Shown here one piece after another: positions 1,480 to 59,057 of a stretch of 64,000 nucleotides of DNA. The first letter of the stretch is position 1, and every line of letters begins with the position of its first letter. A program made the translations under genes and the position numbers. This DNA is from Methanosarcinales archaeon (GTDB lineage Archaea > Halobacteriota > UBA148 > JAUWXC01), in the NCBI GenBank assembly GCA_026016205.1, contig CP061209.1, forward strand, positions 33,685-97,684. The letters run 5' to 3'. Under the pieces are notes generated by a model. It had not been told where the DNA came from. It worked only from the letters and a program-made list of their open reading frames with translations, and searched no databases.

Positions 1480-2262
1480 ATGGCTAAGAAGAGCGTGGCT
1501 AAGAAGGAAGCGCCCAGTATAAAAAAACAAGAACGAGTGCTTACTGGAATACCTGGATTTGATGAGTTGTGTCATGGAGGGCTTATCAGAAACAGGACCT
1601 ATCTGCTTTCTGGAACATCTGGCGCTGGCAAAAGCATCTTCGCGTTACAATATTTGTACAACGGGGCTATTAAATACAACGAACCGGGCATTTATGTTGC
1701 CACAGAGGAAAGGCCAGCAGAAATACGGCAGAATGCGCTTAACTTTGGATGGGATTTGAAGGCGTTAGAAGATGAAAATAAGCTGGCGCTAATCGATGCC
1801 TGTGCCGCCAAAATCGGCGTCCCCTCTAAGGAAAAGTACGTTGATGTCAGACCTCTTGACATGCGCTCTATGATGGACCAGCTTATCACGATACAGGAAA
1901 AAATTAATGCAAAAAGAGCGGTAGTAGACTCTTCTACATCGATTGGCTTTTACCTTATGCAGGATCTGGGCAAAATAAGGCTTGAACTGCTCAAACTGAG
2001 CACTACGCTGGAAATCTTGGGATTAACATCGTTACTAACCTGTGAGGTTATTGATGGCTCACAGATAAGCCGATTTGATGTGGAGAACTTCGTGACCGAG
2101 GGTACCATTGCAATATATTACAAGAGGAGTGAAAACGTGCGAACCAGGAGCATAGAGGTATACAAGATGAGGGGCACAGACCACAGCCATAAGATACATC
2201 CATTTGAAATTACTCCCAAGGGAATAGTAGTTCATCCCAAGGAAGAGGTCTTTGATTTTTAG
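1480..2262 (+). CDS. KaiC-like RecA-superfamily ATPase (single domain)
   Basis: N-terminal 'TGIPGFDELCHGGL' and an intact Walker A 'LLSGTSGAGKS'. The C-terminal 'IEVYKMRGTDHS...HPFEITPKGIVV' is typical of archaeal KaiC/RadA-like proteins. Confidence 0.85.
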   Translation: MAKKSVAKKEAPSIKKQERVLTGIPGFDELCHGGLIRNRTYLLSGTSGAGKSIFALQYLYNGAIKYNEPGIYVATEERPAEIRQNALNFGWDLKALEDENKLALIDACAAKIGVPSKEKYVDVRPLDMRSMMDQLITIQEKINAKRAVVDSSTSIGFYLMQDLGKIRLELLKLSTTLEILGLTSLLTCEVIDGSQISRFDVENFVTEGTIAIYYKRSENVRTRSIEVYKMRGTDHSHKIHPFEITPKGIVVHPKEEVFDF

Positions 2263-2405: not shown

Positions 2406-3992
2406 TCATGGGCGGTGGCGCACATCAATGCCAATACCTAAGGTGCGCTCAATACTGCCAATTCTCTTGCCGCCCTTGCCCAAGACCTTTGGTATGTCGC
2501 GCTGATCGAGGTAGACTACTGCCTTTGAGTCTGACATCATCTCCACGTCTACAGGTCCGCGCACATGCCTGCTAATCTCCTTCTGGACCTCTTTTTCTGC
2601 CAGTTTCCATACGCTTCGCTTAAGCGCACGTATTGGCTTCCCCGCCTCGCTAACTGGCATGACCACGACCTGCTCGCCGTATGTGTAAACTTCATATTCG
2701 GGCTGCCCGGTTTCAAAGTTAATCACATCTATAACCGGGCGCGACAGGTCCTGCTCAATCATCCCAGATGGAACCTTCACAGTGAATTTTATGTTGTACA
2801 CAAGGGAAACTTCGCCCTTGTCGATGAACACGATGGTATCGACCACCTGCGGTATCACCCCTAACTCTATCCTGCCTATCAATCGCTGCAGGGCATCTAT
2901 CGCCCTGTTGGCATGCACCACCCCAACCATTCCAACGCCTGCCAATCTCATGTCTGCAAATACCTGGAAGTCAGAGGTCTTGCGCAGTTCATCATATATT
3001 GTGTAATCAGGTCTAACCAGGAGGAGGATGTTGGCCGTACTCGCCATACTGCCTCCCAGGGGAGAATACTGCGTGATGGCATCCGATACCTGTAAATCTC
3101 TGGGTGACTCCATGGTTTTTACCACGTACCCCTCCTTTTGCAAAAATTCTGCTACGCTGGCGGCAAAAGTGGACTTTCCTGCACCAGGAGAGCCTGCGAT
3201 GAGAACTCCCCTCTGCTTCTCACTCAGTCTTGCTTTCAGCTCTTCACTGAGTTTGTAGCTGTCCAGACTTACCTTTGCAATGGGGCGTACTGCTGTGATT
3301 TCGATTCCGTCTGAAAATGGCGGGCGTGCTATCGCAATTCTCATGAGGCCAAGTTGAACTACGGTCGCACCTTTTCTGTCGAATTCTATGAAGCCTTCCG
3401 GATCCCGTTTTGCCCTCTCTGTGATCTCGTGCGCCATATCGTGCAATTCTTTTTCCGTACAGTGTTTTTTTCTTATCTTCATCAACTGCATTTTGCCGAC
3501 AGTACCCCTCTTCGCCATAGGGGGTACCTTTTCCTTCAGATGCACGGACATCGTATCCTTGGTGAAGTAGGAGTCAATGCTTAGCGATTTCAACTCCTCT
3601 ATTTCTGGGTAAAGATAGATAACCTCCAATCCCTTTGCCCTTGCAACCTCTGACTGAACAATATCGCTGGTTACAAATACTGCATCCTGCTGAATCGCTA
3701 CAGATCTGATTATGGAATCGATTTCGCCACCGGAGGCCAATTTAATCTGCTCAAGCGTAGGGCGCTTGCCTACATACTTTAATGAAATCTTCTTATCCTT
3801 CGCCATCTCGTTCAGTTTTTTAAGCTCTTTCAGGCCATTAAAGCCAATTTCGCGTCCCTGATTTGCCTGCGCCTCCAGTTCGGATATGACGGCCTCCGGA
3901 ATGATAATTTCAGCGCATTCAAACTCGCCGCTCTTGACCTTTGCGGTAATCCTGCCATCTATTATGACGCTTGTATCAGGGACGAGTTTCAT
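2406..3992 (-). CDS. PIN-domain / PilT-type ATPase / KH-domain protein (COG1855-type)
   Basis: The likely start is at [15 protein letters not shown] (PIN N-terminus). Walker A is '[11 protein letters not shown]'. The C-terminal KH-like motif is '[17 protein letters not shown]'. The upstream extension to 4043 would overlap hisI by 68 nt. Confidence 0.8.
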
Positions 3993-4350
3993 GCCCATAC
4001 ACCTTTTCTGGATTAAACACCTTTTCGGCGAGAATTTTTCCATTCATATCTCTATAGAAGCACGATCTGTATCCCATATGGCACGCGCCCCTGATTTGCT
4101 CCACTTTCAAGAGAACAGCATCAGCATCACAATCAACGAGAATCTCGTGTACAATCTGCTCGTTGCCGGAGACCTCACCCTTCTTCCAGATGCGCTCTTT
4201 GCTCCTGCTCCAGTAGTGTGCCCTCTTGGTCTCAAGGGTTTTTTTGAGGGCGCCTAAATTCATGTGAGCGAGCATTAATACCTCTCCGGTTCTATAATCC
4301 TGTGCGATAGCATGAATCAAGCCATCTTTAAATTTCAACTCTCGTAGCAT
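3976..4350 (-). CDS. hisI: Phosphoribosyl-AMP cyclohydrolase
   Basis: 124 aa. '[22 protein letters not shown]', '[20 protein letters not shown]' and '[26 protein letters not shown]' match the conserved HisI pattern, including the Cys/His metal ligands. Confidence 0.85.
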
Positions 4351-4410
4351 AGAATCCCTTATTTCTATATACTATAATTGCATTAAAACATTTGTAAGGT
4401 TTTGATAACA

Positions 4411-5172
4411 ATGGAAGCCAATCAGAAAACCAAGGAAAAACTGGTCACGACTGGCATAAAGGGTTTGGATGCCCAGCTGGGCGGCGGTATGTTGCCTGGG
4501 ACGACGTTATTATTAGTGGGCGAACCCGGAGTCGGCTCTGAGGTATTTGCACATCAGTTCGTCTCCGGCGGTCTGGAGGGCGACGAGCGTGTCTTCTACT
4601 TTTCGACAGACCACCCCATCAACGAGCTCAGGGACAACATGCATAGATTGGGAATCGAGGCCGATAAGTACGAGAAAAAAGAAAAACTGCTCTTCATCGA
4701 TGCATACACGCCCAGGTTTATCAGCATATTGCCGCCAGAGTTACGCAAGGAAGTATCTGACAAGGAACTTCTGCAGAAAGGCGTCGACTCACTCAACCAG
4801 CTCAAAATGGCGATAGAGGCAGATTACGGAAAAAACTACAGGGGCGTGATTGACTCGCTCTCATTCTTCTTGAGGAATTATAGTGTAAAAGACATCAGCG
4901 ATACAATCGAGGTCACGTCCTCCATTGGGAAGATGGCTGGCGGCTCGCATCTGCTCTTGATGGCCAAGGGCATGCATGATGAGACAACGGAAAATGCCAT
5001 GAAGCACCTGGCAGATGGGGTTATCGAGCTTTTTTTCAAGGAAAGGGGCAATGAATTAGAGCGAATGCTTGTCGTTAGGAAGATGAGGGGCATGTTAACT
5101 CCAAACAAGATGATGCCCTTCACCATTGGTCCGAAAGGGATTGATTTGGAAGTGATAACCAGGGTTCTGTAG
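4411..5172 (+). CDS. KaiC-like protein with a degenerate Walker A (probably a non-catalytic paralogue)
   Basis: It has the 'TGIKGLDAQLGGGMLPG' N-terminus and a 'VVRKMRG...PFTIGPKGI' C-terminus, as in KaiC-like proteins. The P-loop position reads 'LLVGEPGVGSE', with no Lys-Ser/Thr. The ATG at 4411 is preferred over the TTG at 4402. Confidence 0.75.
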   Translation: MEANQKTKEKLVTTGIKGLDAQLGGGMLPGTTLLLVGEPGVGSEVFAHQFVSGGLEGDERVFYFSTDHPINELRDNMHRLGIEADKYEKKEKLLFIDAYTPRFISILPPELRKEVSDKELLQKGVDSLNQLKMAIEADYGKNYRGVIDSLSFFLRNYSVKDISDTIEVTSSIGKMAGGSHLLLMAKGMHDETTENAMKHLADGVIELFFKERGNELERMLVVRKMRGMLTPNKMMPFTIGPKGIDLEVITRVL

Positions 5173-42985: not shown

Positions 42986-43301
42986 GTGAGAGAGGAGGAG
43001 GCGGCTTCCGCAACTTTTGGTCAAGCTTTTGCTTGCAAAAGGTTGCGAGGAAAGTCCCCCCACCGCTGAACATACGAGTGCGTGCAAGCGCACAGGGCGA
43101 GAGTCCTGGCTCTGGCGCAGAAACGATACCACGCTGCGTGAATACAATGATACATTAATGTTGAGGCTGCGCAGATTGTGGGTGAAACGGCGAATCCTCG
43201 TAGGTGCAAGCCAAAAGATGGGCAAAAGTTCAGCTAATGCCCTGGTATGGCGCTTAGACGAATGCCGTCGAAACCAAAGGGGGCTTACCCTCCCCACTCA
43301 C
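42986..43301 (+). ncRNA. rnpB: RNase P RNA
   Basis: CR-I is 'GCGAGGAAAGTCCCCCC' (43044-60). 'GCGCAGAAACGATACCACG', 'GTGGGTGAAACGGCG' and the CR-V-like 'AAGGGGGCTTAC' are present. The 5' GTGAGAGAGGAGG can pair with the 3' CCCTCCCCACTCAC (P1). An upstream 'GAAAGATATATGA' TATA-like box lies about 27 nt before 42986. The ORFs across this region are mutually overlapping on both strands. Confidence 0.85.
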
Positions 43302-43392
43302 TATCATATCCTTGATTAAATGTGAATCTTTTATACAATAAAACGACAAATCTACATATGTGTTGATACCAACGGTTGAAAGGCGAAGCGTG

Positions 43393-44097
43393 ATGACGAA
43401 ATATGATCTGGGTATACCAGAGCTGGACAAGGCATTGGGAGGGATTCAAAGTGGCACAAACGTGGTGCTTGTAGGTCCTCCGATGTGTGGAAAAGACATA
43501 CTCGTCAAGCAAATTCTCCATGCTGGTTTGAGGGATGGGGACGGAGTTATCCTTGTATCTACTGGGGAGCCCGGCGAAAGCATATTCAAATGGTGCGAAC
43601 AGCACAAATTGGGTATAGAAAACTATAAAAATCGGTTTGGAATTGTGGATTGCGTCTCGAAAACGCTTGGCATGGATGTTTCTGATACGCAAAATATAAA
43701 ACGTGCATCTAGTCCGGTTGACTTGACCGGGATCGGTGTCAAAATAAGCCAGTTTTTTGAGCAGTTCTATGTCAAGGATAAGCTTTCAAAGGCCAGACTG
43801 GCTGTAGACTCCCTATCGACGATGCTGATGTACTCCAATCTGCAGACTGTTTTTAGATTCTTGCATGTTTTCACCGGCAGGATTAAAGCCGCAGATGCCC
43901 TTGGCATCTACGTGCTCGAAGCCGGTATGCATGATGATAAAACCGTTGCAACGCTCAAGAAATTGTTTGACGGTGTGATTGAAATCAAAGAAGAAAATGG
44001 CGAATTCTTCATTAAAACCGCGGGGATGGGTTCAACACCAGGAAAATGGATGAAGTATGAAATTACCGGCCCTAAAATCGTCATAAAAGGTGATTAA
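43393..44097 (+). CDS. KaiC-like ATPase (single domain, Walker A 'GPPMCGKD')
   Basis: 'LGIPELDKALGGIQSGTNVVLVGPPMCGKDILV' is present, with the C-terminal 'GVIEIKEENGEFFIKTAGMG..PGKWMKYEITGPKIV'. This is the first gene of a tightly packed three-gene operon. Confidence 0.75.
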   Translation: MTKYDLGIPELDKALGGIQSGTNVVLVGPPMCGKDILVKQILHAGLRDGDGVILVSTGEPGESIFKWCEQHKLGIENYKNRFGIVDCVSKTLGMDVSDTQNIKRASSPVDLTGIGVKISQFFEQFYVKDKLSKARLAVDSLSTMLMYSNLQTVFRFLHVFTGRIKAADALGIYVLEAGMHDDKTVATLKKLFDGVIEIKEENGEFFIKTAGMGSTPGKWMKYEITGPKIVIKGD

Positions 44098-44100
44098 AAG

Positions 44101-45267
44101 ATGTTTGAGACAGGCATTCCAAAATTGGATGATTATCTGAGTGGCGGCATACCATCTGGTAAATCACTGATATACCATACCCAACCCGGTGTTGAGGGCG
44201 ATATATTTGGTATGCAGACATTGTATTGGAATTTGCACAAAGGGCACAAAGGCGTATACGTAGCCTCGAACTCCGCCCCATATGCCGTAAAGGGGCGGTT
44301 TAAGGAGTTTGGCTGGAATGTCGAGAAATTTGACCAGCTTTCCATCGTTGATTGTTTCTCAGCGCTAATGGGGGCAGATTCTAGCGAGCGCTATGTGGTG
44401 TCCAATCCAGAGGACATCGTGGCGATAGATGATGCCATATCAAAGGCAATGGAAAATGCGGCAGGCGGTGTAATCGTATTTGAATCGCTCTCAACCATCA
44501 TGGACCATTGTGGTGAAAAAGAAACGCTGAAGTATATGGAGAAATGGAAAAAATATAGCACAGCGTACGACAACGTCGTAATTTGCAATTTTACCGCCTG
44601 GCCTTATGCCAAAAGTACGCTGAAACGGATAAAAGAACTATTTGATGCTGTAATAACCATCAGTGGAATCGCAAAGAGGGTTATTTTTGGGCAGTACTAT
44701 GGGGTTTCAAAAGTGAACTGGGTAGCCAAATCACAGAAGCGCTCAATATCCTTCAAGGTGCTCCGTCCTGGTGGCGTAAAGATTTTCATACCAAAGGTCC
44801 TCGTAACAGGACCCTATAATGCTGGCAAATCATCATTCATTCATGCAATATCAAGCAGAGCGATATCCGTAGACCGGTTGGGAACAACCGTTGCGATGGA
44901 CCATGACTTTATAGACCATAAAGGCTTCACGGCTGATATATTTGGGACGCCCGGGCAGGAGAGATTTGATCCCTTGCTCAGGATGCTCAGCGGCGAGGCG
45001 ATGGGGGTATTCTTGTTAATCGATTCAACTAAGCCTAGTACCTTCCCTAGGGCTAAAAAGATGCTGGAGATGACCAGAGCACATGGGCTTCCTTATCTGG
45101 TCGTAGCGAACAAACAAGATTTGCCAGACGCCTTAAGCGTAAATGCAATACGGAAAAAGATGAAGATTCCAGAATCAGTGCCGATTATCTCTGCCAGCGT
45201 AGCCAAGAAGCAGGGCGTGTTCGAGGCGTTCGAGACACTAATCGATATGATAACCAAGGCAATATAG
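44101..45267 (+). CDS. Fusion protein: N-terminal KaiC-like domain with a degenerate P-loop, plus a C-terminal Ras-superfamily small GTPase
   Basis: The N-terminus 'TGIPKLDDYLSGGIPSGKSLIYHTQPGVEGDIFG' has KaiC-like architecture but no GK[ST]. From about aa 231 the GTPase motifs appear in order: G1 'GPYNAGKS', G3 'DIFGTPGQERF', G4 'VVANKQDL' and G5 'ISASVAKK'. Confidence 0.8.
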   Translation: MFETGIPKLDDYLSGGIPSGKSLIYHTQPGVEGDIFGMQTLYWNLHKGHKGVYVASNSAPYAVKGRFKEFGWNVEKFDQLSIVDCFSALMGADSSERYVVSNPEDIVAIDDAISKAMENAAGGVIVFESLSTIMDHCGEKETLKYMEKWKKYSTAYDNVVICNFTAWPYAKSTLKRIKELFDAVITISGIAKRVIFGQYYGVSKVNWVAKSQKRSISFKVLRPGGVKIFIPKVLVTGPYNAGKSSFIHAISSRAISVDRLGTTVAMDHDFIDHKGFTADIFGTPGQERFDPLLRMLSGEAMGVFLLIDSTKPSTFPRAKKMLEMTRAHGLPYLVVANKQDLPDALSVNAIRKKMKIPESVPIISASVAKKQGVFEAFETLIDMITKAI

Positions 45268-45639
45268 ATGGTGAAAGATACGATTGTTGGGATGCTGGAA
45301 AAGGTGCTGACTGACTTGAGGCGCACCGGTGACATAGAAGCCTCCGCCATCGTGTCACGAGATGGGCTTCTGATGGCATCTGATATTGCTGAAGGCATTC
45401 ATGCCGAGACATTTGCCGCGATGTCTGCAACCATGCTGGGCGCTGCAGAGACTGCGATATCAGAATTGAACAAGGGAATTCCAGACAGGGTCATCGTAGA
45501 GTCAAAGAAGGGAAAGGTTATCACCACGGGAGCAGGTCCGAAGGCGTTGCTGGTGGTCATGACACCTCCCGAGGCAGGATTGGGGCTGATTCTCGTCGAA
45601 ATGGAGAAGGCTGCGGATAAGGCAAAGAAACTGTTATGA
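45268..45639 (+). CDS. Roadblock/LC7 (MglB-like) domain protein
   Basis: 'LTDLRRTGDIEASAIVSRDGLLMASDI....AETFAAMSATMLGAAETAISEL' is the typical Roadblock/LC7 pattern. Its ATG follows the GTPase stop by 1 nt. Confidence 0.8.
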   Translation: MVKDTIVGMLEKVLTDLRRTGDIEASAIVSRDGLLMASDIAEGIHAETFAAMSATMLGAAETAISELNKGIPDRVIVESKKGKVITTGAGPKALLVVMTPPEAGLGLILVEMEKAADKAKKLL

Positions 45640-45666: not shown

Positions 45667-45804
45667 TCACTCAACATTTTCACTCTTGTGTGGCCGCTTT
45701 GATATCTTTAAATCGTCTAGATTCTCTTCTATCAGCTTTTTATCCACTTCTTCCTGCTTCTTTATGCCTTTTCGCTCGACATGCCTTTTCTTGTAGTCTG
45801 ACAT
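45667..45804 (-). CDS. Possible small basic protein (45 aa), not in the ORF track
   Basis: My translation is MSDYKKRHVERKGIKKQEEVDKKLIEENLDDLKISKRPHKSENVE. It occupies an otherwise empty 200-bp gap. There is no motif, so support is weak. Confidence 0.25.
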   Translation of the reverse strand: MSDYKKRHVERKGIKKQEEVDKKLIEENLDDLKISKRPHKSENVE

Positions 45805-45856: not shown

Positions 45857-45942
45857 GCCGGGGTGGCAGAGTGGACTAACGCGGCAGGCTCGAGACCTGT
45901 TGTTCCTTCGGGAACACTTGGGTTCAAATCCCAACCCCGGCG
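45857..45942 (+). tRNA. tRNA-Ser(CGA), class II with a long variable arm, no intron
   Basis: GCCGGGG-TG-...-GCAGG-CTCGAGA-CCTGT-[TGTTCCTTCGGGAACACT]-TGGG-TTCAAAT-CCCA-A-CCCCGGC-G. The acceptor stem is a perfect 7 bp and the anticodon loop is CU-CGA-GA. Confidence 0.9.
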
Positions 45943-46011
45943 CTCACTTCGTTCGCTTGAAGTTTTGTTATCCCAATAGGTTTTAGTAAACAGGGGAACA
46001 ACTAGAAGAAT

Positions 46012-47202
46012 ATGCCTGAAGTGGGGGTTTACAAGAGAAGAGGGCTGGAGATCTGGCTTGAAGTCGCTGAGGATAACATCGAGCTCAAGTCATCGGGTGC
46101 GCTCTCTAAATTGACTTCTCCTTTGTTGAATAGAGTAAATAAGATGTTGAGGGACGAGAAGCCAATCAAGGCGACAGAGGAAGAAGTGGTTTTAAGCACA
46201 TGGTTTCCTCCGATTCCAAGCGGGCCATTCCAAAGAGCTATAAAAGCTGAGATGGACATCTTGCTGAAGAGAAAATTCACTCCACAGGCTGTTTCAATGA
46301 ATATTTCTGATTGCACACTCAATTGTAGTGAGTGCAACATAGTCGAGCATGAGGGAGAGCTCAAAACGAAAGAGGTGAAGGATTTTATAGTGCAAGTCCA
46401 GGACCTTGGGGCGATTACAATTGGATTTGCGGAAGGAGACCCCCTCTTAAGGGAAGACCTTTCTGAACTTATAGATTGCATAGACAAGAAAAAATCCATT
46501 ACGAGCGTTTTCACGCCTGGCCCCCTATTGACAGATAAGGTTGCTGCGGAATTGAAAGAGCATGGAGTATATGCGGTAATGACAGGGATTAAAAGCTCAA
46601 TCCCGCGGGAGCATGATGCTGCGAGAGGGCTAAAAGGGGCATTTGACAAAGCTGTAACAGGCATGAAAAACGCGGTAGAGAATGGACTCTACGTCTCCAT
46701 GCATACACATGTAGCTCCAAAACTTGTGGAGAGCGGGGAGCTTGCCAAAATCTACAAACTCGCCTCGAAGATTGGAGTTCATGAGTTGACCATCTGGGAA
46801 GCGCATCCAACCTGGAAATATAAAGATAAAAAAGAGTTGATTTTGGATGATGGGCATAGAAAGGAGATTATGGAACTGTACAGGAAAGCAAACACTTCCA
46901 AAGAAGGTCCAAGAATATTCTACAACGCTGTCTTTGAATCTCCAGAGCTCTTTGGCTGTATGGCAGGCAGGAGATGGCTGAACTTGATACACTCGGGTGA
47001 TTTGACTCCTTGTACATACGTCCCAATATCATTTGGAAACATTAGAGAAGAAAGCGTGGAGAAGATCTGGAGAAGGATGTGTAAATTTAATGAATTCAGG
47101 AGGAAGAGATTCTGCGTGATGCTCGATGAGAAATTCAGGTCGAAATATATCGATCCGTTCTCCGTATCTGACCTGCCCATCAGCTACAAGGATGTTGTTT
47201 GA
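46012..47202 (+). CDS. Radical-SAM enzyme with a C-terminal auxiliary-cluster (SPASM/twitch-like) region and a ~100-aa N-terminal extension (paralogue 1)
   Basis: The CX3CX2C motif is 'DCTLNCSECNIV'. The 'GFAEGDPLL' GGE-like motif is present. The C-terminus reads 'GCMAGRRWLNLIHSGDLTPCTYVPISFGNIREESVEKIW'. The N-terminal motif is 'STWFPPIPSGPFQRAIKAEM'. Confidence 0.8.
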   Translation: MPEVGVYKRRGLEIWLEVAEDNIELKSSGALSKLTSPLLNRVNKMLRDEKPIKATEEEVVLSTWFPPIPSGPFQRAIKAEMDILLKRKFTPQAVSMNISDCTLNCSECNIVEHEGELKTKEVKDFIVQVQDLGAITIGFAEGDPLLREDLSELIDCIDKKKSITSVFTPGPLLTDKVAAELKEHGVYAVMTGIKSSIPREHDAARGLKGAFDKAVTGMKNAVENGLYVSMHTHVAPKLVESGELAKIYKLASKIGVHELTIWEAHPTWKYKDKKELILDDGHRKEIMELYRKANTSKEGPRIFYNAVFESPELFGCMAGRRWLNLIHSGDLTPCTYVPISFGNIREESVEKIWRRMCKFNEFRRKRFCVMLDEKFRSKYIDPFSVSDLPISYKDVV

Positions 47203-47218: not shown

Positions 47219-48409
47219 ATGGAATTTGTTGCATATGATTCAATTCTGCTCAAACTCATTTTGGAAGTCATGGACAACAGGACAAGGATGCAGACTAAAG
47301 GCCCTCTCTCCCCCTTCTTAGGAAAAGTGGAGCAGAAGTTTGGTGCATATCTAAAAAATCTACCGACTGAAATCAGAGGGGACACACTCTACCTTTCAAC
47401 CGCCTTTCCGCCCGTTCCAAGCAAGCCTTTTAAACGACTTGTAACCTCTCAGATAAAAAGAGCTCTTGGCTTTCATAATCCTGATAACCTGACAATTATG
47501 GTTACGGAAGACTGCCAGTGTCATTGCGAGCACTGTCTGGCACATAAAATGGGCCAGGGCGAAGAACTCTCCAAGAACGAGATATTCGATGTGATTGACC
47601 AAGCTCTGGAGCTTGGCGTGTCTCAAATCACTTTTGAAGGCGGCGAGCCGACTTTGAGAAAAGACCTCCCTGAACTCATTGAGCACGTTGACAAAAGCAA
47701 GGCCACTACAATGGTCGTGACAAATGGCCAGTATCTAACCAAGGATTACATTCAGACGCTCAAGAAGTCCGGATTGGACTACATAAATGTAAGTATAGAC
47801 AGCCCATGCCCAGAGGAGCATGACACGTTTAGAGGGGTTTCAGGACTTTTCGAGGATGCTACCAAAGGGATAAAAAATTCTGTAGACGCGGGAATTCTAA
47901 CCGGTGTTTTATACATTGCGAGGCCGGGGAATTGTGACAGGAAAACCTTAGAAAAGATGGTAAACTACTGCGAAGAGCTCGGTGTTTTTGAACTTATGAT
48001 CGATAAAATTGTCCCAAGTGGGAGATGGATGGGCAAGGATGTCTTGAGCGAAGAACAGGAGGAAGAGATAATCAGGTTCCAGAAAGAGATAGCCGAGGAG
48101 AAGGGAAAGAACTTGGTCACGAACTTTTTCCAGTTAAGGAGGCCTGATTTTTTTGGATGTTTTGCAGGCAGAATGTGGTGCTATGTTTCTCCTAGTGGAG
48201 AGGTAATGCCGTGCATGCATGTTCCCATCTCCTTTGGAAATGTGCGGAAGGAGAAATTATCAAAGATATGGAAAAAAATAAGAAGGCACCCCCTCTTCAA
48301 CAAAAAACCAGAAACGTGTGTATATGAAGGCCCCCTATATAAGGAAAAATATCTTGGGCACATGCCAGAAGATGCCCCTCTTCCATATCCTATTGAGAAA
48401 CTTGATTGA
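47219..48409 (+). CDS. Radical-SAM enzyme, SPASM/twitch-like, with the N-terminal extension (paralogue 2)
   Basis: The CX3CX2C motif is 'DCQCHCEHCLAH'. 'TFEGGEPTL' and 'GCFAGRMWCYVSPSGEVMPCMHVPISFGNVRKEKLSKIWKKIRRHPLFNKKPETC' are present. The N-terminal motif is 'STAFPPVPSKPFKRLVTSQIKR'. Confidence 0.85.
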   Translation: MEFVAYDSILLKLILEVMDNRTRMQTKGPLSPFLGKVEQKFGAYLKNLPTEIRGDTLYLSTAFPPVPSKPFKRLVTSQIKRALGFHNPDNLTIMVTEDCQCHCEHCLAHKMGQGEELSKNEIFDVIDQALELGVSQITFEGGEPTLRKDLPELIEHVDKSKATTMVVTNGQYLTKDYIQTLKKSGLDYINVSIDSPCPEEHDTFRGVSGLFEDATKGIKNSVDAGILTGVLYIARPGNCDRKTLEKMVNYCEELGVFELMIDKIVPSGRWMGKDVLSEEQEEEIIRFQKEIAEEKGKNLVTNFFQLRRPDFFGCFAGRMWCYVSPSGEVMPCMHVPISFGNVRKEKLSKIWKKIRRHPLFNKKPETCVYEGPLYKEKYLGHMPEDAPLPYPIEKLD

Positions 48410-48410
48410 C

Positions 48411-49394
48411 ATGAAGGCGCTTACTATTCCATTAAAGGCCCTATGGCAGTTGAAGGTAAAAAACAGACCCATTATTCTTTCTCATGGAATTAATTCGAGA
48501 TGCAACCTGCACTGCAAATTTTGCCCATACTGGAAAGAAGACAGGGGCGAGATGAGCAAAGAGGACATATTCAAACTCCTTGAAGAAGCCAGGTCTTTCG
48601 GAATAATGCTTTACAACGCATGGACCACAGAACCCCTCCTGAGGGAGGATCTTCCAGAAATCCTTAGGTATGCTCATCACCTTGGGATGATGACATCTCT
48701 TGTAACCAATGGAGTCCTGCTGAAGAAGAGAGCCAGAGAACTCTCAGACCTTGATTATCTCTCGATTTCTGTAGACGGTATTAAGTCCTATGAGGCGATG
48801 AGAGGTGTCAAGCTGGATAAGGTGCTGGATGGAATCAGGGAGGCAAGGGACAGGGGAATCACCACCTTAATCAACTGCGTCATCAGCGGAAAAAATCTGG
48901 ACGAGATCGAGGAGCTAATACATCTAGCCCAAGAGTTGGGGGCGTGGATTTCATTTGAGCCCCTCTATGAATACGAAGACATCCCACAAGAGGTGTGGGA
49001 AGATATAGGGATAAGGGATATGGGAAGGTACGAGAAGACCATTGACAGGATAATTGAATTAAAAGAAGAAAGCTATCCTATTATCAACTCCAAAACTTAT
49101 CTCAGAATGATAAAGAATCTGCGCCCAGATTTCAGATGTCATGCCAGTGACATTGTGCTCGATGTTACATCGGACGGTAGGATAGAAAACTGCAGAGTTC
49201 ACAGAGAAAGCATGGGCGATATCAAGGATGGACTGGATAATGCCTGGAGTGCTTCAAAAGCGAGGAGGAAAAAAATACCGATGGGATGTAAAGGGTGTCT
49301 GTTTTTTGGATATGCTGAATTAAGTCTCCTCTATTCTTTTAAACCTGAAGTAATACTAAATGGTATCAGGATACTAAATGGCATTAGGCCCTAA
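48411..49394 (+). CDS. Radical-SAM enzyme (distinct, shorter type with no N-terminal extension)
   Basis: Start taken at MKALTIPL, 1 nt after the upstream stop. The CX3CX2C motif is 'SRCNLHCKFCPYW' at about aa 30. The C-terminal Cys residues are in 'RCHASDIVLDVTSDGRIENCRVH' and 'MGCKGCLFFGY'. Confidence 0.8.
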   Translation: MKALTIPLKALWQLKVKNRPIILSHGINSRCNLHCKFCPYWKEDRGEMSKEDIFKLLEEARSFGIMLYNAWTTEPLLREDLPEILRYAHHLGMMTSLVTNGVLLKKRARELSDLDYLSISVDGIKSYEAMRGVKLDKVLDGIREARDRGITTLINCVISGKNLDEIEELIHLAQELGAWISFEPLYEYEDIPQEVWEDIGIRDMGRYEKTIDRIIELKEESYPIINSKTYLRMIKNLRPDFRCHASDIVLDVTSDGRIENCRVHRESMGDIKDGLDNAWSASKARRKKIPMGCKGCLFFGYAELSLLYSFKPEVILNGIRILNGIRP

Positions 49395-50530
49395 AGGATA
49401 TATTTTGCAAATCTTATCAACTTTGGATTCTTCCACAGAAGAAGGAGCCCCGTGCTCAGGGAGTTCAGAATAACATTATCATGCTTTGAGAGCTGTTTGG
49501 ATATGTCCACGCCCTCTAAAGCCCTCATTGCTTCATCAAGCTCTGCATCCGACATCTTTTCTATGGTCTTTAATCCAAAACGCCCCGTCCTGTACTGATT
49601 TAAAAATCTCTTCTTCCACTGCTTCTCGTACTTAGAAAGGAATCTTTTAGAGCCATCCTTCTCCTTCACCGCTTCCGCAGCAACCTCTCCACAAAGCATG
49701 CCAGCAGCCATTCCATAGGCAATACCTGCCTGCCCAGCAGCTCCACCTACAACCATCAGCCTATCGCTTACTAACTCGTTAGGCATTGTGATTATTTGGT
49801 CTGCCCCCTCTGATATGCTAAGAATTTTGGCTTTGCTGAACATATCTCGCTGCAGAAATCTATCAAAATACTCCTTTGGGCTTTTCCCTCTAACAAACGC
49901 TCCCACGCTTGTCTTGCCATCTCCTTTTGGGGAAATTGTGGTCTTCCAGCCTGGTGCAACTTCTTTGCCTAGGAAATAATGGAAATAATTTTCGTTCACC
50001 TCTACGCCCTCCATCTCGGCCTGGATTGCGTATGCAAGGTCTTCCGGGTACTTCATCGTTTTCAATCCTGTTTCCTTAACGATTTCAGAGTTTACTCCCG
50101 GGGCGAGTACAAAAACCTCTCCATTGTACATCTTCTTGTTTTCCCCCTCTTTTACAACAACCTCTCCCTCATTGAGAGCTATGGCATCGAAGCTCATTTT
50201 GATCTCTGCGCCAGCATCTCTTGCCATCTCAGCATAATACGCATCAAACTTCTTCCTATCAATCGAGAATCCTGGTGCATCTATTGTTATGGTCGTTCCG
50301 AGCGGAGAGATTATATTCATCCCTTTGACCTTGTGAATGATGTATTTCTCTTCAGGCTCAAGTCCAATCATCTTAAAAAAACCATCAAAAGAAGTATCTG
50401 CAGGGCTTGGAGCAGAATCAAAACTCTCTCTTTTCTCCAAGAGTAAAACATTAGCTCCTCCTTCTGCTGCCTTCCATGCTGCCATTAAACCAGCAGGACT
50501 TGCACCTATCACTATTACATCGTATTTCAT
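49391..50530 (-). CDS. FAD-dependent geranylgeranyl reductase-family oxidoreductase
   Basis: 'MKYDVIVIGASPAGLMAAWKAAEGGANVLLLEK' is the dinucleotide-binding GxGxxG motif. 'RLMVVGGAAGQAGIAYG' is the second FAD motif position. The length and layout match archaeal GGR/ChlP-type enzymes. Confidence 0.75.
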   Translation of the reverse strand: MKYDVIVIGASPAGLMAAWKAAEGGANVLLLEKRESFDSAPSPADTSFDGFFKMIGLEPEEKYIIHKVKGMNIISPLGTTITIDAPGFSIDRKKFDAYYAEMARDAGAEIKMSFDAIALNEGEVVVKEGENKKMYNGEVFVLAPGVNSEIVKETGLKTMKYPEDLAYAIQAEMEGVEVNENYFHYFLGKEVAPGWKTTISPKGDGKTSVGAFVRGKSPKEYFDRFLQRDMFSKAKILSISEGADQIITMPNELVSDRLMVVGGAAGQAGIAYGMAAGMLCGEVAAEAVKEKDGSKRFLSKYEKQWKKRFLNQYRTGRFGLKTIEKMSDAELDEAMRALEGVDISKQLSKHDNVILNSLSTGLLLLWKNPKLIRFAKYIL

Positions 50531-51732
50531 TCTTCTACCCGGTATGGCAATCTTTCCTCTTCAATTGCATTTCTAATACAGCCGAAATAATTATCCCTGT
50601 ATTGAGGATCTCTCCATGCGCATGTTTCTGGTTTTTTCTTAAACAAAGGATGCCTTCTTATTTTTTTCCAGGCACTCTCTAAGCTTATATCGCGCACATT
50701 GCCAAAGGAGAGCGGAATGTGCAGACAGGGCATGATCTCACCAGTCGGCGATATCCATACCCATCTTCTTCCTGCAAAGCATCCCATGATATTGGGATCT
50801 CTGTAGGAGTAAGAAGAAGATACCCTGGGGCCGTCTCTCCTCTTATTTGCCTCATTTTGAAACGCAGCTAACCTCTCATAATCTTCCTTCGTTAAGAGGT
50901 TGTCATCATGATATTCCCATCTCCCTCCGGGAACCACCTCATCAATCAAAATCTCATGTACACCAAGAGAACTGCAATGTTTGTATAAATCCTCTAATCT
51001 TTTCAAATCAGAGTTATAGGGAGTAGCCGTGTATTCGACTATTCCTATCAACCCTTCTTCAACACCATACTTAACGCCTGCAGAGGCTTTTTCAAAAACC
51101 CCTTCAACCCCCCTGAACATATCGTGTTCCTTCGGGTATGGGCTATCGAGGCTGACATGTAGATATACAAGTCCTGCATTCTTCAGCCTCTGTACATAGT
51201 CTCTTGTCAGGCGGAGCCCGTTTGTTATCAGATGCGTAGAAGCTTTGCTCTTATCAACATGCTTAATCAAATCGAATATATCATCCCTGAGCGTTGGCTC
51301 CCCCCCTTCAAAGCTTACATGGTAAGCTCCAAGTTCAAGGGCCTGGTCTATCACATGGTAAAGCTCCTTAGTGGGGATGTGTGGCTCCTTTTTCATTCCA
51401 TGTACTATACAGTGCTTGCATTTACATTGGCATCTGCCCGTGGTTAACAACATCAGGCTCTCAGGCATGGATTTACGCAAAAGGAGGCGTTTTATCTGGT
51501 TTTCTACGAGCCTGTTAAAAGGTCCACTGGGGGCGGGCGGCATAAAATTGGATATTATGACCTGCCCTTCTCGGACTGCCGCTACCTTTTCCAGTGCAGC
51601 ATGCGCATTAAACCCCTCTGCGATGTGCATTACAAATCTCGAGAGTGGACCTTTCACCACCATCTGTGCGCTTCTGCCGTTCACATCAAATAGAATCTCA
51701 AAGCCTAGGCCCTTGTAAATCGATAGTTCCAA
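50527..51732 (-). CDS. Radical-SAM enzyme, SPASM/twitch-like, with the N-terminal extension (paralogue 3, closest to paralogue 2)
   Basis: The CX3CX2C motif is 'GRCQCKCKHCIVH'. 'SFEGGEPTL' and 'GCFAGRRWVWISPTGEIMPCLHIPLSFGNVRDISLESAWKKIRRHPLFKKKPETC' are present. The N-terminal motif is 'SNFMPPAPSGPFNRLVENQIKR'. Confidence 0.85.
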   Translation of the reverse strand: MELSIYKGLGFEILFDVNGRSAQMVVKGPLSRFVMHIAEGFNAHAALEKVAAVREGQVIISNFMPPAPSGPFNRLVENQIKRLLLRKSMPESLMLLTTGRCQCKCKHCIVHGMKKEPHIPTKELYHVIDQALELGAYHVSFEGGEPTLRDDIFDLIKHVDKSKASTHLITNGLRLTRDYVQRLKNAGLVYLHVSLDSPYPKEHDMFRGVEGVFEKASAGVKYGVEEGLIGIVEYTATPYNSDLKRLEDLYKHCSSLGVHEILIDEVVPGGRWEYHDDNLLTKEDYERLAAFQNEANKRRDGPRVSSSYSYRDPNIMGCFAGRRWVWISPTGEIMPCLHIPLSFGNVRDISLESAWKKIRRHPLFKKKPETCAWRDPQYRDNYFGCIRNAIEEERLPYRVEE

Positions 51733-55607: not shown

Positions 55608-55739
55608 GGGCTCGTAGCTCAGTTGGAAGAGCGTCGCCTTTGCGATGCATGCGGTTCGAAGAAGCGCCGTGCATTAGAAAACCAGCAGGTTTTCGCACAA
55701 AATAGGCGAAGGCCCTGGGTTCAACTCCCAGCGAGTCCA
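55608..55739 (+). tRNA. tRNA-Ala(UGC) in the 16S-23S spacer, with a 59-nt intron at 37/38 (55645-55703)
   Basis: GGGCTCG-TA-GCTC-AGTTGGAAGA-GAGC-G-TCGCC-TTTGCG[intron]A-GGCGA-AGGCC-CTGGG-TTCAACT-CCCAG-CGAGTCC-A. The G3:U70 Ala identity pair is present. The intron contains the hairpins ATGCA..TGCAT and GAAAACC-AGCA-GGTTTTC. Confidence 0.85.
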
Positions 55740-58970: not shown

Positions 58971-59057
58971 GCCAAGGTGGCGGAATGGCTAACGCAGCCG
59001 CCTGCAGACGAATAGGAAGAGAGCGGCTTTTTGCCGGTTCAATTCCGGTCCTTGGCT
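58971..59057 (+). tRNA. tRNA-Cys(GCA) between 23S and 5S, with a ~14-nt intron (59008-59021)
   Basis: GCCAAGG-TG-GCGG-AATGGCTA-ACGC-A-GCCGC-CTGCAG[ACGAATAGGAAGAG]A-GCGGC-TTTTT-GCCGG-TTCAATT-CCGGT-CCTTGGC-T. The discriminator is U73, as expected for Cys. Confidence 0.8.

Follow-up and report, generated by a model that had tools for sequence, protein, structure and literature searches.

Our analysis points to a small-GTPase switch of the MglA/MglB kind, scaffolded on a hetero-oligomer of KaiC-like proteins, as the likely product of a putative three-gene operon in a Methanosarcinales archaeon; we put the probability of this reading, which is built on sequence comparison, at roughly 0.6. The genes lie in a 64,000-nucleotide (nt) stretch of contig CP061209.1 (positions 33,685 to 97,684, forward strand; assembly GCA_026016205.1), hereafter called the window, and the middle one joins an inactivated KaiC-like (iKaiC) domain to a GTPase. 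Three tightly packed open reading frames (ORFs) on the + strand are concerned:

43393-44097, + strand: gene 1, a stand-alone KaiC/RecA-fold protein of the DUF7504 family, 234 amino acids from its ATG, with a deviant P-loop
44101-45267, + strand: gene 2, 388 amino acids, a KaiC-like domain fused to a small GTPase
45268-45639, + strand: gene 3, a Roadblock/LC7 (MglB-like) protein of 123 amino acids

The spacer between genes 1 and 2 is 3 nt (AAG) and that between genes 2 and 3 is 0 nt, the TAG stop of gene 2 abutting the ATG of gene 3 at 45267/45268. Since a Shine-Dalgarno-like AGGTGA also sits 7 nt 5' of the gene 2 ATG at 44101, the genes appear to be translationally coupled, and a single operon is the best explanation of their arrangement. 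A search of sequencing runs for RNA evidence of co-transcription gave none labelled as RNA. An in-frame GTG at 43360 would lengthen gene 1 by 11 amino acids; its orthologues begin at the ATG position. Immediately 3' of the RNase P RNA gene, which ends at 43299, lies a candidate archaeal promoter of the operon:

43330-43335, + strand: TTTATA, a TATA-box-like element read directly in the sequence, ~58 nt 5' of the ATG at 43393

An earlier interpretation made from the letters alone (the sequence-only reading) had described the same three genes, 3 and 0 nt apart, and our ORF coordinates and spacers agree with it. Translation of the exact bases recovered every motif that it quoted, and its outline held throughout our analysis: a covalent KaiC-like::GTPase fusion in which the KaiC-like part has no P-loop and the GTPase is intact, together with an MglB-like Roadblock partner.

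That reading had also named a frameshift or sequencing error near 44780 as the finding that would split gene 2 into two genes. We dismiss the idea that the 388-amino-acid ORF was created by a sequencing or assembly error, in favour of which nothing was found. The junction lies at ~44785, and it is crossed by an identical contig of one sequencing run (X1, which may be the source sample) covering 43959-45600, as well as by close-strain contigs of two further runs (X2 and X3) that cover 43941/43983-45346 with 17-18 substitutions and 0 gaps. A large protein collection yielded 1757 homologues of the fusion; among the best 120 of them, nearly all are 386-395 amino acids long, align over 99-100% of the query and include both sets of domains. 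Representatives at 50% identity fell into 113 clusters at E<=1e-30, with identity dropping to about 25%, and most of the representative clusters listed are 370-415 amino acids long and match almost the whole query. In addition, we obtained 85 full-length fusions from the loci that were fetched. In the AlphaFold2 (AF2) model of the fusion (pLDDT 87.5, pTM 0.79), a single predicted beta strand (residues 225-236) leads straight out of the KaiC-like domain and into GTPase strand 1, with no linker. The junction is free of indels in other assemblies, and at least 574 genomes of archaeal species contain a homologue; a frameshift artefact is therefore dismissed.

The latter figure comes from a scan of one genome per species, which gave at least 574 stretches with a confirmed relative, of which 80 loci were kept. 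Relatives extend from Methanosarcinales to lineages of the DPANN group and Bathyarchaeota. The kept loci represent Methanosarcinales, Methanoperedens, ANME-2, Methanocellales, Archaeoglobaceae, Alkanophaga, Hydrothermarchaeales, Thermoplasmata, Methanobacteriaceae, Halobacteriales, Altiarchaeota, Woese-, Nano-, Micr- and Aenigmatarchaeota, and Bathyarchaeota. The view of the fusion as a rarity must therefore be given up in favour of a pan-archaeal family, and the copy in the window is an ordinary, clean, minimal member of an old and widespread module.

The partners travel with the fusion. ORFs were called in all loci and searched with profiles of the three proteins of the window, and linkage was counted for the 61 fusions whose flanks reach at least 1.3 kb on each side, a partner being a gene within 2.5 kb. 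A Roadblock gene lies beside 57 of these 61 fusions and a separate KaiC-like gene beside 58, with both present at 54; the Roadblock neighbour recurs in nearly all lineages. The main gene orders are KaiC-fusion-Roadblock, as in the window (30), and Roadblock-fusion-KaiC (19). Gene order tracks the maximum-likelihood tree (17 changes vs 42 with shuffled labels), which places the window in a well-supported clade (100/99) with Methanosarcinales, Methanoperedens, Archaeoglobaceae, Hydrothermarchaeales, Methanocellales and a Thermoplasmata subclade. In another clade (100/100), Methanobacteriaceae group with a second paralogue of ANME-2 genomes.

Two loci stood out in this census. In a Halobacteriota metagenome-assembled genome (L017, 7288-13173), two cassettes lie almost in tandem, in the order KaiC-fusion-Roadblock, two extra Roadblock genes, a second fusion and another Roadblock gene. 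An archaeal triad was also present in a contig binned as 'Anaerolineales bacterium' (L021, JAIWAT010000091.1); it is a tree neighbour of the Methanosarcinales locus L016 on very short branches, and the contig is most probably a contaminant of that bin and not a copy from a bacterium.

The N-terminal half of gene 2 has a complete fold and is catalytically deviant. Its features are the following:

44101-44790, + strand: KaiC-like (iKaiC) domain, gene 2 residues 1-230, complete fold, catalytically deviant
44182-44205, + strand: QPGVEGDI, a pseudo-P-loop occupying the true Walker A site, with Gly for Lys and Asp for Thr
44143-44166, + strand: GGIPSGKS, residues 15-22, with a GxxxxGK[ST] pattern, the KaiC entry motif before strand 1
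44665-44697, + strand: beta-hairpin GIAKRVIFGQY with the basic tip residue R193, a candidate trans-acting finger

Pfam KaiC (PF06745) matches residues 3-154 (6e-17; 62.2 bits vs a gathering score of 26.6), models of the ArlH type stretch the match to about residue 230, and thermo_KaiC_1 scores 80 bits against a cut-off of 307. Foldseek aligned the domain with PH0284 (2dr3) over 229 columns (TMt 0.85, root-mean-square deviation 2.4), so that at the level of fold it belongs to the KaiC/RecA-like superfamily. Hidden Markov model alignments pair QPGVEGDI with GPGTGKTI in PH0284 and with GPPMsGKd in the gene 1 family; the Walker A lysine and threonine are accordingly Gly and Asp in the fusion. The sequence-only reading had noted HTQPGVEGD with no GK[S/T] in this domain, and the loss is indeed located at the true Walker A position. 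None of the pseudo-P-loop variants listed for the 85 fusions (PGVEG, PGVEC, PEVEG, PGVAS and others) contains a lysine. The Walker B site reads VFESL in the window and varies among G, E, N and D within the family. The catalytic Glu-Glu pair is missing, the sequence at its site being ASNSAP or SSxxP. The domain thus lacks the Walker A motif, the Walker B Asp and the Glu-Glu pair of an active KaiC-like ATPase. GGIPSGKS was considered as a second P-loop and rejected: it precedes the strand at residues 22-27, aligns with GGIPERNV of PH0284 and keeps the pattern in only 36 of the 85 fusions. The AF2 model places the two hairpin strands at residues 183-191 and 196-205 and predicts the tip (192-194) with low confidence.

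The C-terminal half of gene 2 retains intact small-GTPase motifs:

44791-45267, + strand: MglA-type small GTPase, gene 2 residues 231-388 plus the stop codon
44809-44832, + strand: G1/P-loop GPYNAGKS, with G237, G242 and K243 100% conserved in the 85 fusions
44869-44892, + strand: switch I/G2 VDRLGTTV with a TT pair, R259 98% conserved
44935-44961, + strand: G3 DIFGTPGQE, with GTPGQ instead of DxxGQ
45109-45120, + strand: G4 NKQD, for guanine specificity, with N337 and K338 100% and D340 98% conserved

Profile searches align residues 232-385 to the Ras superfamily (Pfam Arf 1.5e-13, Ras 2.5e-12), an alignment whose failure would have counted against the sequence-only reading; the NCBIfam model small_GTP (TIGR00231) scores 48.3 bits, above its cut-off of 42.5, and Arl1 is matched in the PDB (1.3e-10). 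The two threonines of G2 are 92% and 98% conserved in the 85 fusions. GTPGQ is present in all but a few of them, with G282 at 100%, P284 at 96%, G285 at 99% and Q286 at 98%. G1, the G2 threonine and the [NT]KxD of G4 therefore conform to the Ras superfamily, whereas the canonical G3 Asp of DxxGQ does not: the invariant G282 lies opposite the Asp of DTAGQ in Rab27B, a departure by which the MglA family is defined. The domain had been called Ras-like, which stands in that the superfamily profiles match and G1, G3 and G4 are intact; the GTPGQ of G3 and the TT of G2 make it, more specifically, MglA-type. Since the listed pseudo-P-loops are without lysine and G1, G3 and G4 are 98-100% conserved, one domain of the fusion appears dead and the other live.

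GTPGQ in G3, TT in G2 and coupling to mglB are traits common to MglA groups 2-5 (PMC4316618). The fusion shows GTPGQ, a Thr in place of the intrinsic Arg of group 1, and an adjacent Roadblock gene, which lies at 0 nt here, the neighbour rule for these groups being an mglB (Roadblock) gene within four genes. Group 4 is found almost exclusively in methanogenic Euryarchaeota (PMC4316618), and at 388 amino acids the fusion falls outside the 150-240 amino acids set for its members. Indeed, the MglA census dropped sequences of more than 240 amino acids and reported no conserved neighbours for group 4 (PMC4316618); the fused GTPase was left outside it because of that length limit.

Gene 3 belongs to the Roadblock/LC7 family, with a Pfam Robl_LC7 score of 59.1 bits (3.7e-16; gathering score 23). 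The Roadblock structures that it matches in the PDB include 7f8m (4.5e-16), 9jue (8e-16) and 7yh1 (9e-11), the last being one of the Asgard deposits listed in PMC10933270, and CvnB5 (3leq) is matched at 2e-8. According to PMC11016934, MglB acts on MglA as GTPase-activating protein (GAP) and, in addition, as guanine nucleotide exchange factor (GEF).

Gene 1 encodes the third component, in which the nucleotide site is altered to a lesser degree:

43474-43497, + strand: Walker A GPPMCGKD, Lys present, Asp at the Ser/Thr position
43801-43818, + strand: Walker B region AVDSLS, Asp retained here, Asn in most orthologues of the clade

The protein matches Pfam DUF7504 (9.4e-31), DUF7090 (9e-18) and KaiC (1.6e-15), has 1854 homologues, and gave an AF2 model (pLDDT 90.2, pTM 0.88) that Foldseek aligned with PH0284 (2dr3) at a TM-score of 0.83/0.84. 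Its family and the N-terminal domain of the fusion are paralogous RecA-like families (hhalign 97.6%). GPPMCGKD stands opposite GePGTGKT of SSO2452, and across 20 orthologues K34 is invariant and the next residue is D, E or N, never S/T. Only one of the two KaiC glutamates is kept (STGEP), the position of the first being Gly or Arg. Among 90 adjacent KaiC-like partners, 85 retain the P-loop lysine and only 42 have a canonical motif. Partners of the window's clade read GPPM[SC]GK[DEN] with a Walker B that is mostly Asn (Methanosarcinales, Methanoperedens; the window copy has Asp), and those of the second clade (Methanobacteriaceae together with the second copy in ANME-2) have canonical GPPKTGKS and a Walker B Asp. 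Judged by the residues of an active KaiC-like ATPase, gene 1 thus keeps the Lys and the Walker B Asp, has Asp for Ser/Thr and is left with one Glu. The constant lysine pattern across partners and fusions indicates that one RecA-like subunit probably remains able to bind nucleotide and the other is not; gene 1 seems more likely to sense or bind nucleotide than to drive a hydrolysis cycle.

A paralogue of gene 1 (P0130), which was searched for in the window and is absent from it, is 90-93% identical over residues 151-210 and about 55% identical elsewhere. Contigs in four runs branch at window positions 43808-44012 and 45291-45621. Together, these observations suggest that the genome has a second cassette and that gene conversion has taken place between the two.

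With these components, we envisage that the dead KaiC-like domain of gene 2 would not hydrolyze ATP and would serve as an oligomerization and docking module, pairing with gene 1 in a RecA-like hetero-oligomer that displays the GTPase domains. A Roadblock dimer would bind the GTPase and, like MglB with MglA, set its GTP/GDP state, acting as a GAP and perhaps as a GEF too. The binding of nucleotide to gene 1 may modulate assembly, and R193, at the conserved basic tip of the fusion's hairpin, may extend into the nucleotide site of gene 1. Several observations weigh against this scheme. Position 193 is R or K in 70 of the 85 fusions (82%), not in all of them, and the role of a finger is a conjecture. 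The sequence of MglB itself matches gene 3 weakly (E 0.04). A few loci (L009, L010, L029 and L073) are without a Roadblock gene or a KaiC-like partner, so that neither partner is strictly obligatory. Finally, no effector gene is conserved beside the module, and the output of the switch, or the biological process that it serves, therefore cannot be read from gene context.

The sequence-only reading had gone further and proposed an ATPase-gated GTPase switch, in which gene 1 would be an active KaiC-like ATPase or autokinase whose cycle of ATP hydrolysis would drive or gate the gene 2 GTPase. We find this doubtful. The retained K34, Walker B Asp (AVDSLS) and single glutamate (STGEP) of gene 1 speak for it, as do the lysine of the 85 partners and the canonical motifs of the second clade. 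However, the Mg2+-binding Ser/Thr is always D, E or N in the window's clade, most orthologues from Methanosarcinales and Methanoperedens have Asn at Walker B, the first glutamate of the pair is replaced, no kaiB-like gene is adjacent in the window, and all curated archaeal KaiC/ArlH models score far below their cut-offs. Binding without turnover fits these data better. What stands of the proposal is the P-loop lysine (GPPMCGKD); a working ATPase is not established, since the Ser/Thr of the partner P-loop is replaced by Asp, Glu or Asn in this clade and the other catalytic residues deviate.

A more elaborate form of the scaffolded switch is a tentative idea that we rate as unlikely. In it, gene 1 and the dead domain of gene 2 would alternate in a hetero-hexameric ring like those of KaiC-like hexamers, only the gene 1 sites would bind nucleotide, R193 would act as a finger in trans, and the ring would carry a crown of MglA-type GTPases switched by Roadblock dimers. 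If this were true, an adenine-nucleotide sensor would be physically coupled to a guanine-nucleotide switch, and archaea would possess a platform with a logic like that of Rag-Ragulator or the conservon, built of RecA-fold subunits.

A dedicated role in regulating type IV pili, the archaellum or motility, like that of MglA/MglB in Myxococcus, is improbable. In one Thermoplasmata locus (L008), the triad lies directly 5' of T2SSE and T2SSF genes, arCOG02603 Roadblock genes are reported often to be encoded in archaeal type IV pilus loci (PMC4858521), and both gene 1 and the fusion match ArlH/FlaH weakly. A T2SSE-type ATPase is nevertheless found in only 4 loci, two of which (L053 and L007) are the same contig end, and there is none within 5 kb in the window. 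The ArlH scores (NF052589) are 23-24 bits against a cut-off of 215, and no archaellum genes are nearby. The promise of L008 thus does not extend to a family-wide pilus link.

A role in RNA or ribosome biogenesis is, in our view, slightly more improbable still. The idea comes from the flanks of the operon in the window, which hold two RNA genes:

42988-43299, + strand: archaeal RNase P RNA (200 bits), 93 nt 5' of the first start codon of the operon
45857-45943: tRNA-Ser(CGA), 217 nt downstream of the operon

Elsewhere, YhbY, S19e and PDCD5-like genes adjoin the module; in Methanoperedens, the YhbY gene follows the Roadblock gene with a 4 nt overlap, and the YhbY cluster occurs in 13 of 84 loci. 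This linkage was, however, observed only in loci of Methanoperedens and Methanosarcinaceae, the window has no yhbY gene at that place, and the flanks are entirely different between orders.

Compared with known systems, the scaffolded switch comes closest to MglA/MglB groups 2-5, with which it shares a Ras-superfamily GTPase, GTPGQ in G3, TT in G2 and an adjacent gene for a single-domain Roadblock/LC7 protein (PMC4316618). It differs from them by the 230-residue inactivated KaiC-like fusion and the second KaiC-like gene. Group 1 MglA has an intrinsic arginine finger and the GTPase described here does not. The iKaiC domains of the proposed archaeal KaiC signaling hubs likewise have a destroyed ATPase site and are fused or linked to signaling domains. 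Inactivated KaiC domains were put forward as archaeal signaling parts by Makarova, Galperin and Koonin (2017, mBio), a work cited in PMC5847659; it is to this idea that the sequence-only reading referred.

PH0284 (2dr3, an entry that holds six chains), SSO2452 (2w0m) and ArlH/FlaH have the same fold as gene 1 and the N-terminal domain of the fusion (TM 0.83-0.85). PH0284 and SSO2452 have a canonical GxxGxGKT, whereas the fusion has PGVEG and gene 1 has GK-D. The proteins do not belong with circadian KaiC: circ_KaiC scores 21.6 bits vs a cut-off of 546 and PRK09302 29-31 vs 408, two tandem domains are expected where each protein here has one, and no kaiB-like gene is adjacent. In the Streptomyces conservon, too, a single operon encodes a GTPase of the MglA group (CvnD) and a Roadblock protein (CvnB). 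A CvnA-type histidine kinase and a CvnC-like gene are, however, not present in the window, where KaiC-like proteins replace the accessory components and the three-gene operon lies between RNase P RNA and tRNA-Ser. Genes of a PAS-GAF histidine kinase family are found near the module at no more than 13 of 84 loci, and the one that was scanned is on the opposite strand. Eukaryotic Rag-Ragulator and other Roadblock/longin platforms similarly hold GTPases on a multi-subunit platform and regulate them by Roadblock-fold dimers; the platform proposed here would consist of RecA/KaiC-fold subunits, and the likeness is offered as an analogy only, with no homology of the scaffolds implied.

Public records name these proteins 'ATPase domain-containing protein', 'GTP-binding protein' and 'RAD55 family ATPase'. 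An ANME-2 orthologue of the fusion (KAF5411993.1) is annotated as 'Circadian clock protein kinase KaiC', and the family fails all KaiC tests that we applied.

A full-text literature search found no experimental study of the fusion or the triad, which is in line with the statement of the sequence-only reading that no archaeal example is known to have been characterized experimentally. The 2017 work of Makarova and colleagues may already describe the fusion and the triad. The module is a widespread variant of the MglA/MglB switch that is, as far as we found, experimentally unstudied.

Roadblock-regulated small GTPases are central to membrane and nutrient signaling in eukaryotes and to polarity in bacteria, and experimental knowledge of their use in archaea outside Asgard is almost blank. 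The module unites two archaeal signaling elements proposed from genomics, KaiC-like proteins and MglA/MglB pairs, and their covalent fusion is a natural indication that the two parts work together. To this, the locus in the window adds little beyond a clean, minimal example, and the module is no peculiarity of this genome. As the module has only three genes, it could be rebuilt in vitro, and the idea is directly testable because cultured archaea carry it: the fusion and a Roadblock gene occur in Methanocella sp. MCL-LM, and at least a gene 1 orthologue in Methanosalsum zhilinae DSM 4017.

We also analyzed the genomic neighborhood. Clustering of the flanking ORFs of 84 loci revealed, beyond the KaiC-like and Roadblock genes, no neighbor family in more than 13 loci; the top families were YhbY and the PAS-GAF histidine kinase (13 each), followed by a TPR protein (10). 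In the window, the flanks are of a housekeeping kind (DnaG-like Toprim proteins, AMMECR1, RNase P RNA, tRNA-Ser and radical SAM/SPASM genes). A 439-amino-acid ORF also flanks the operon, and its orthologue in the closest relative (L001) matches dihydroorotase/amidohydrolase families. The synteny of protein genes upstream of the operon is the same in that relative.

Between the Roadblock gene and tRNA-Ser lies a putative ORF of ~45 amino acids rich in Lys and Glu (45670-45804, - strand; MSDYKKRHVERKGIKK...). Radical SAM/SPASM-like paralogues follow 3' of the operon at 46012-47202, 47219-48409 and 48318-49394 (+) and at 50527-51732 (-); the only one of this set that was scanned, 46012-47202, matched Radical_SAM (3e-12) and SPASM (1e-9). 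A radical SAM/SPASM gene (cluster 18) is also found near the triad in some Methanosarcinaceae loci. Anti-phage defense was considered and rejected, as PADLOC returned for gene 1 a lone, weak and generic P-loop match (mad8, 1.3e-4) and for genes 2 and 3 none.

Elsewhere in the window, a separate KaiC-family cluster occupies 1480-2262 (+), 2406-4043 (-) and 4402-5172 (+), with two KaiC-like genes (Pfam KaiC 8.5e-73 and 2.6e-33) around a protein that combines PIN with a T2SSE-like ATPase. In the rRNA operon of the window, Rfam identified tRNAs at 58971-59057 and 55608-55739 (+). ARAGORN gave the former a four-base anticodon (tgca) and missed the latter (132 nt); probably both are archaeal tRNAs with introns.

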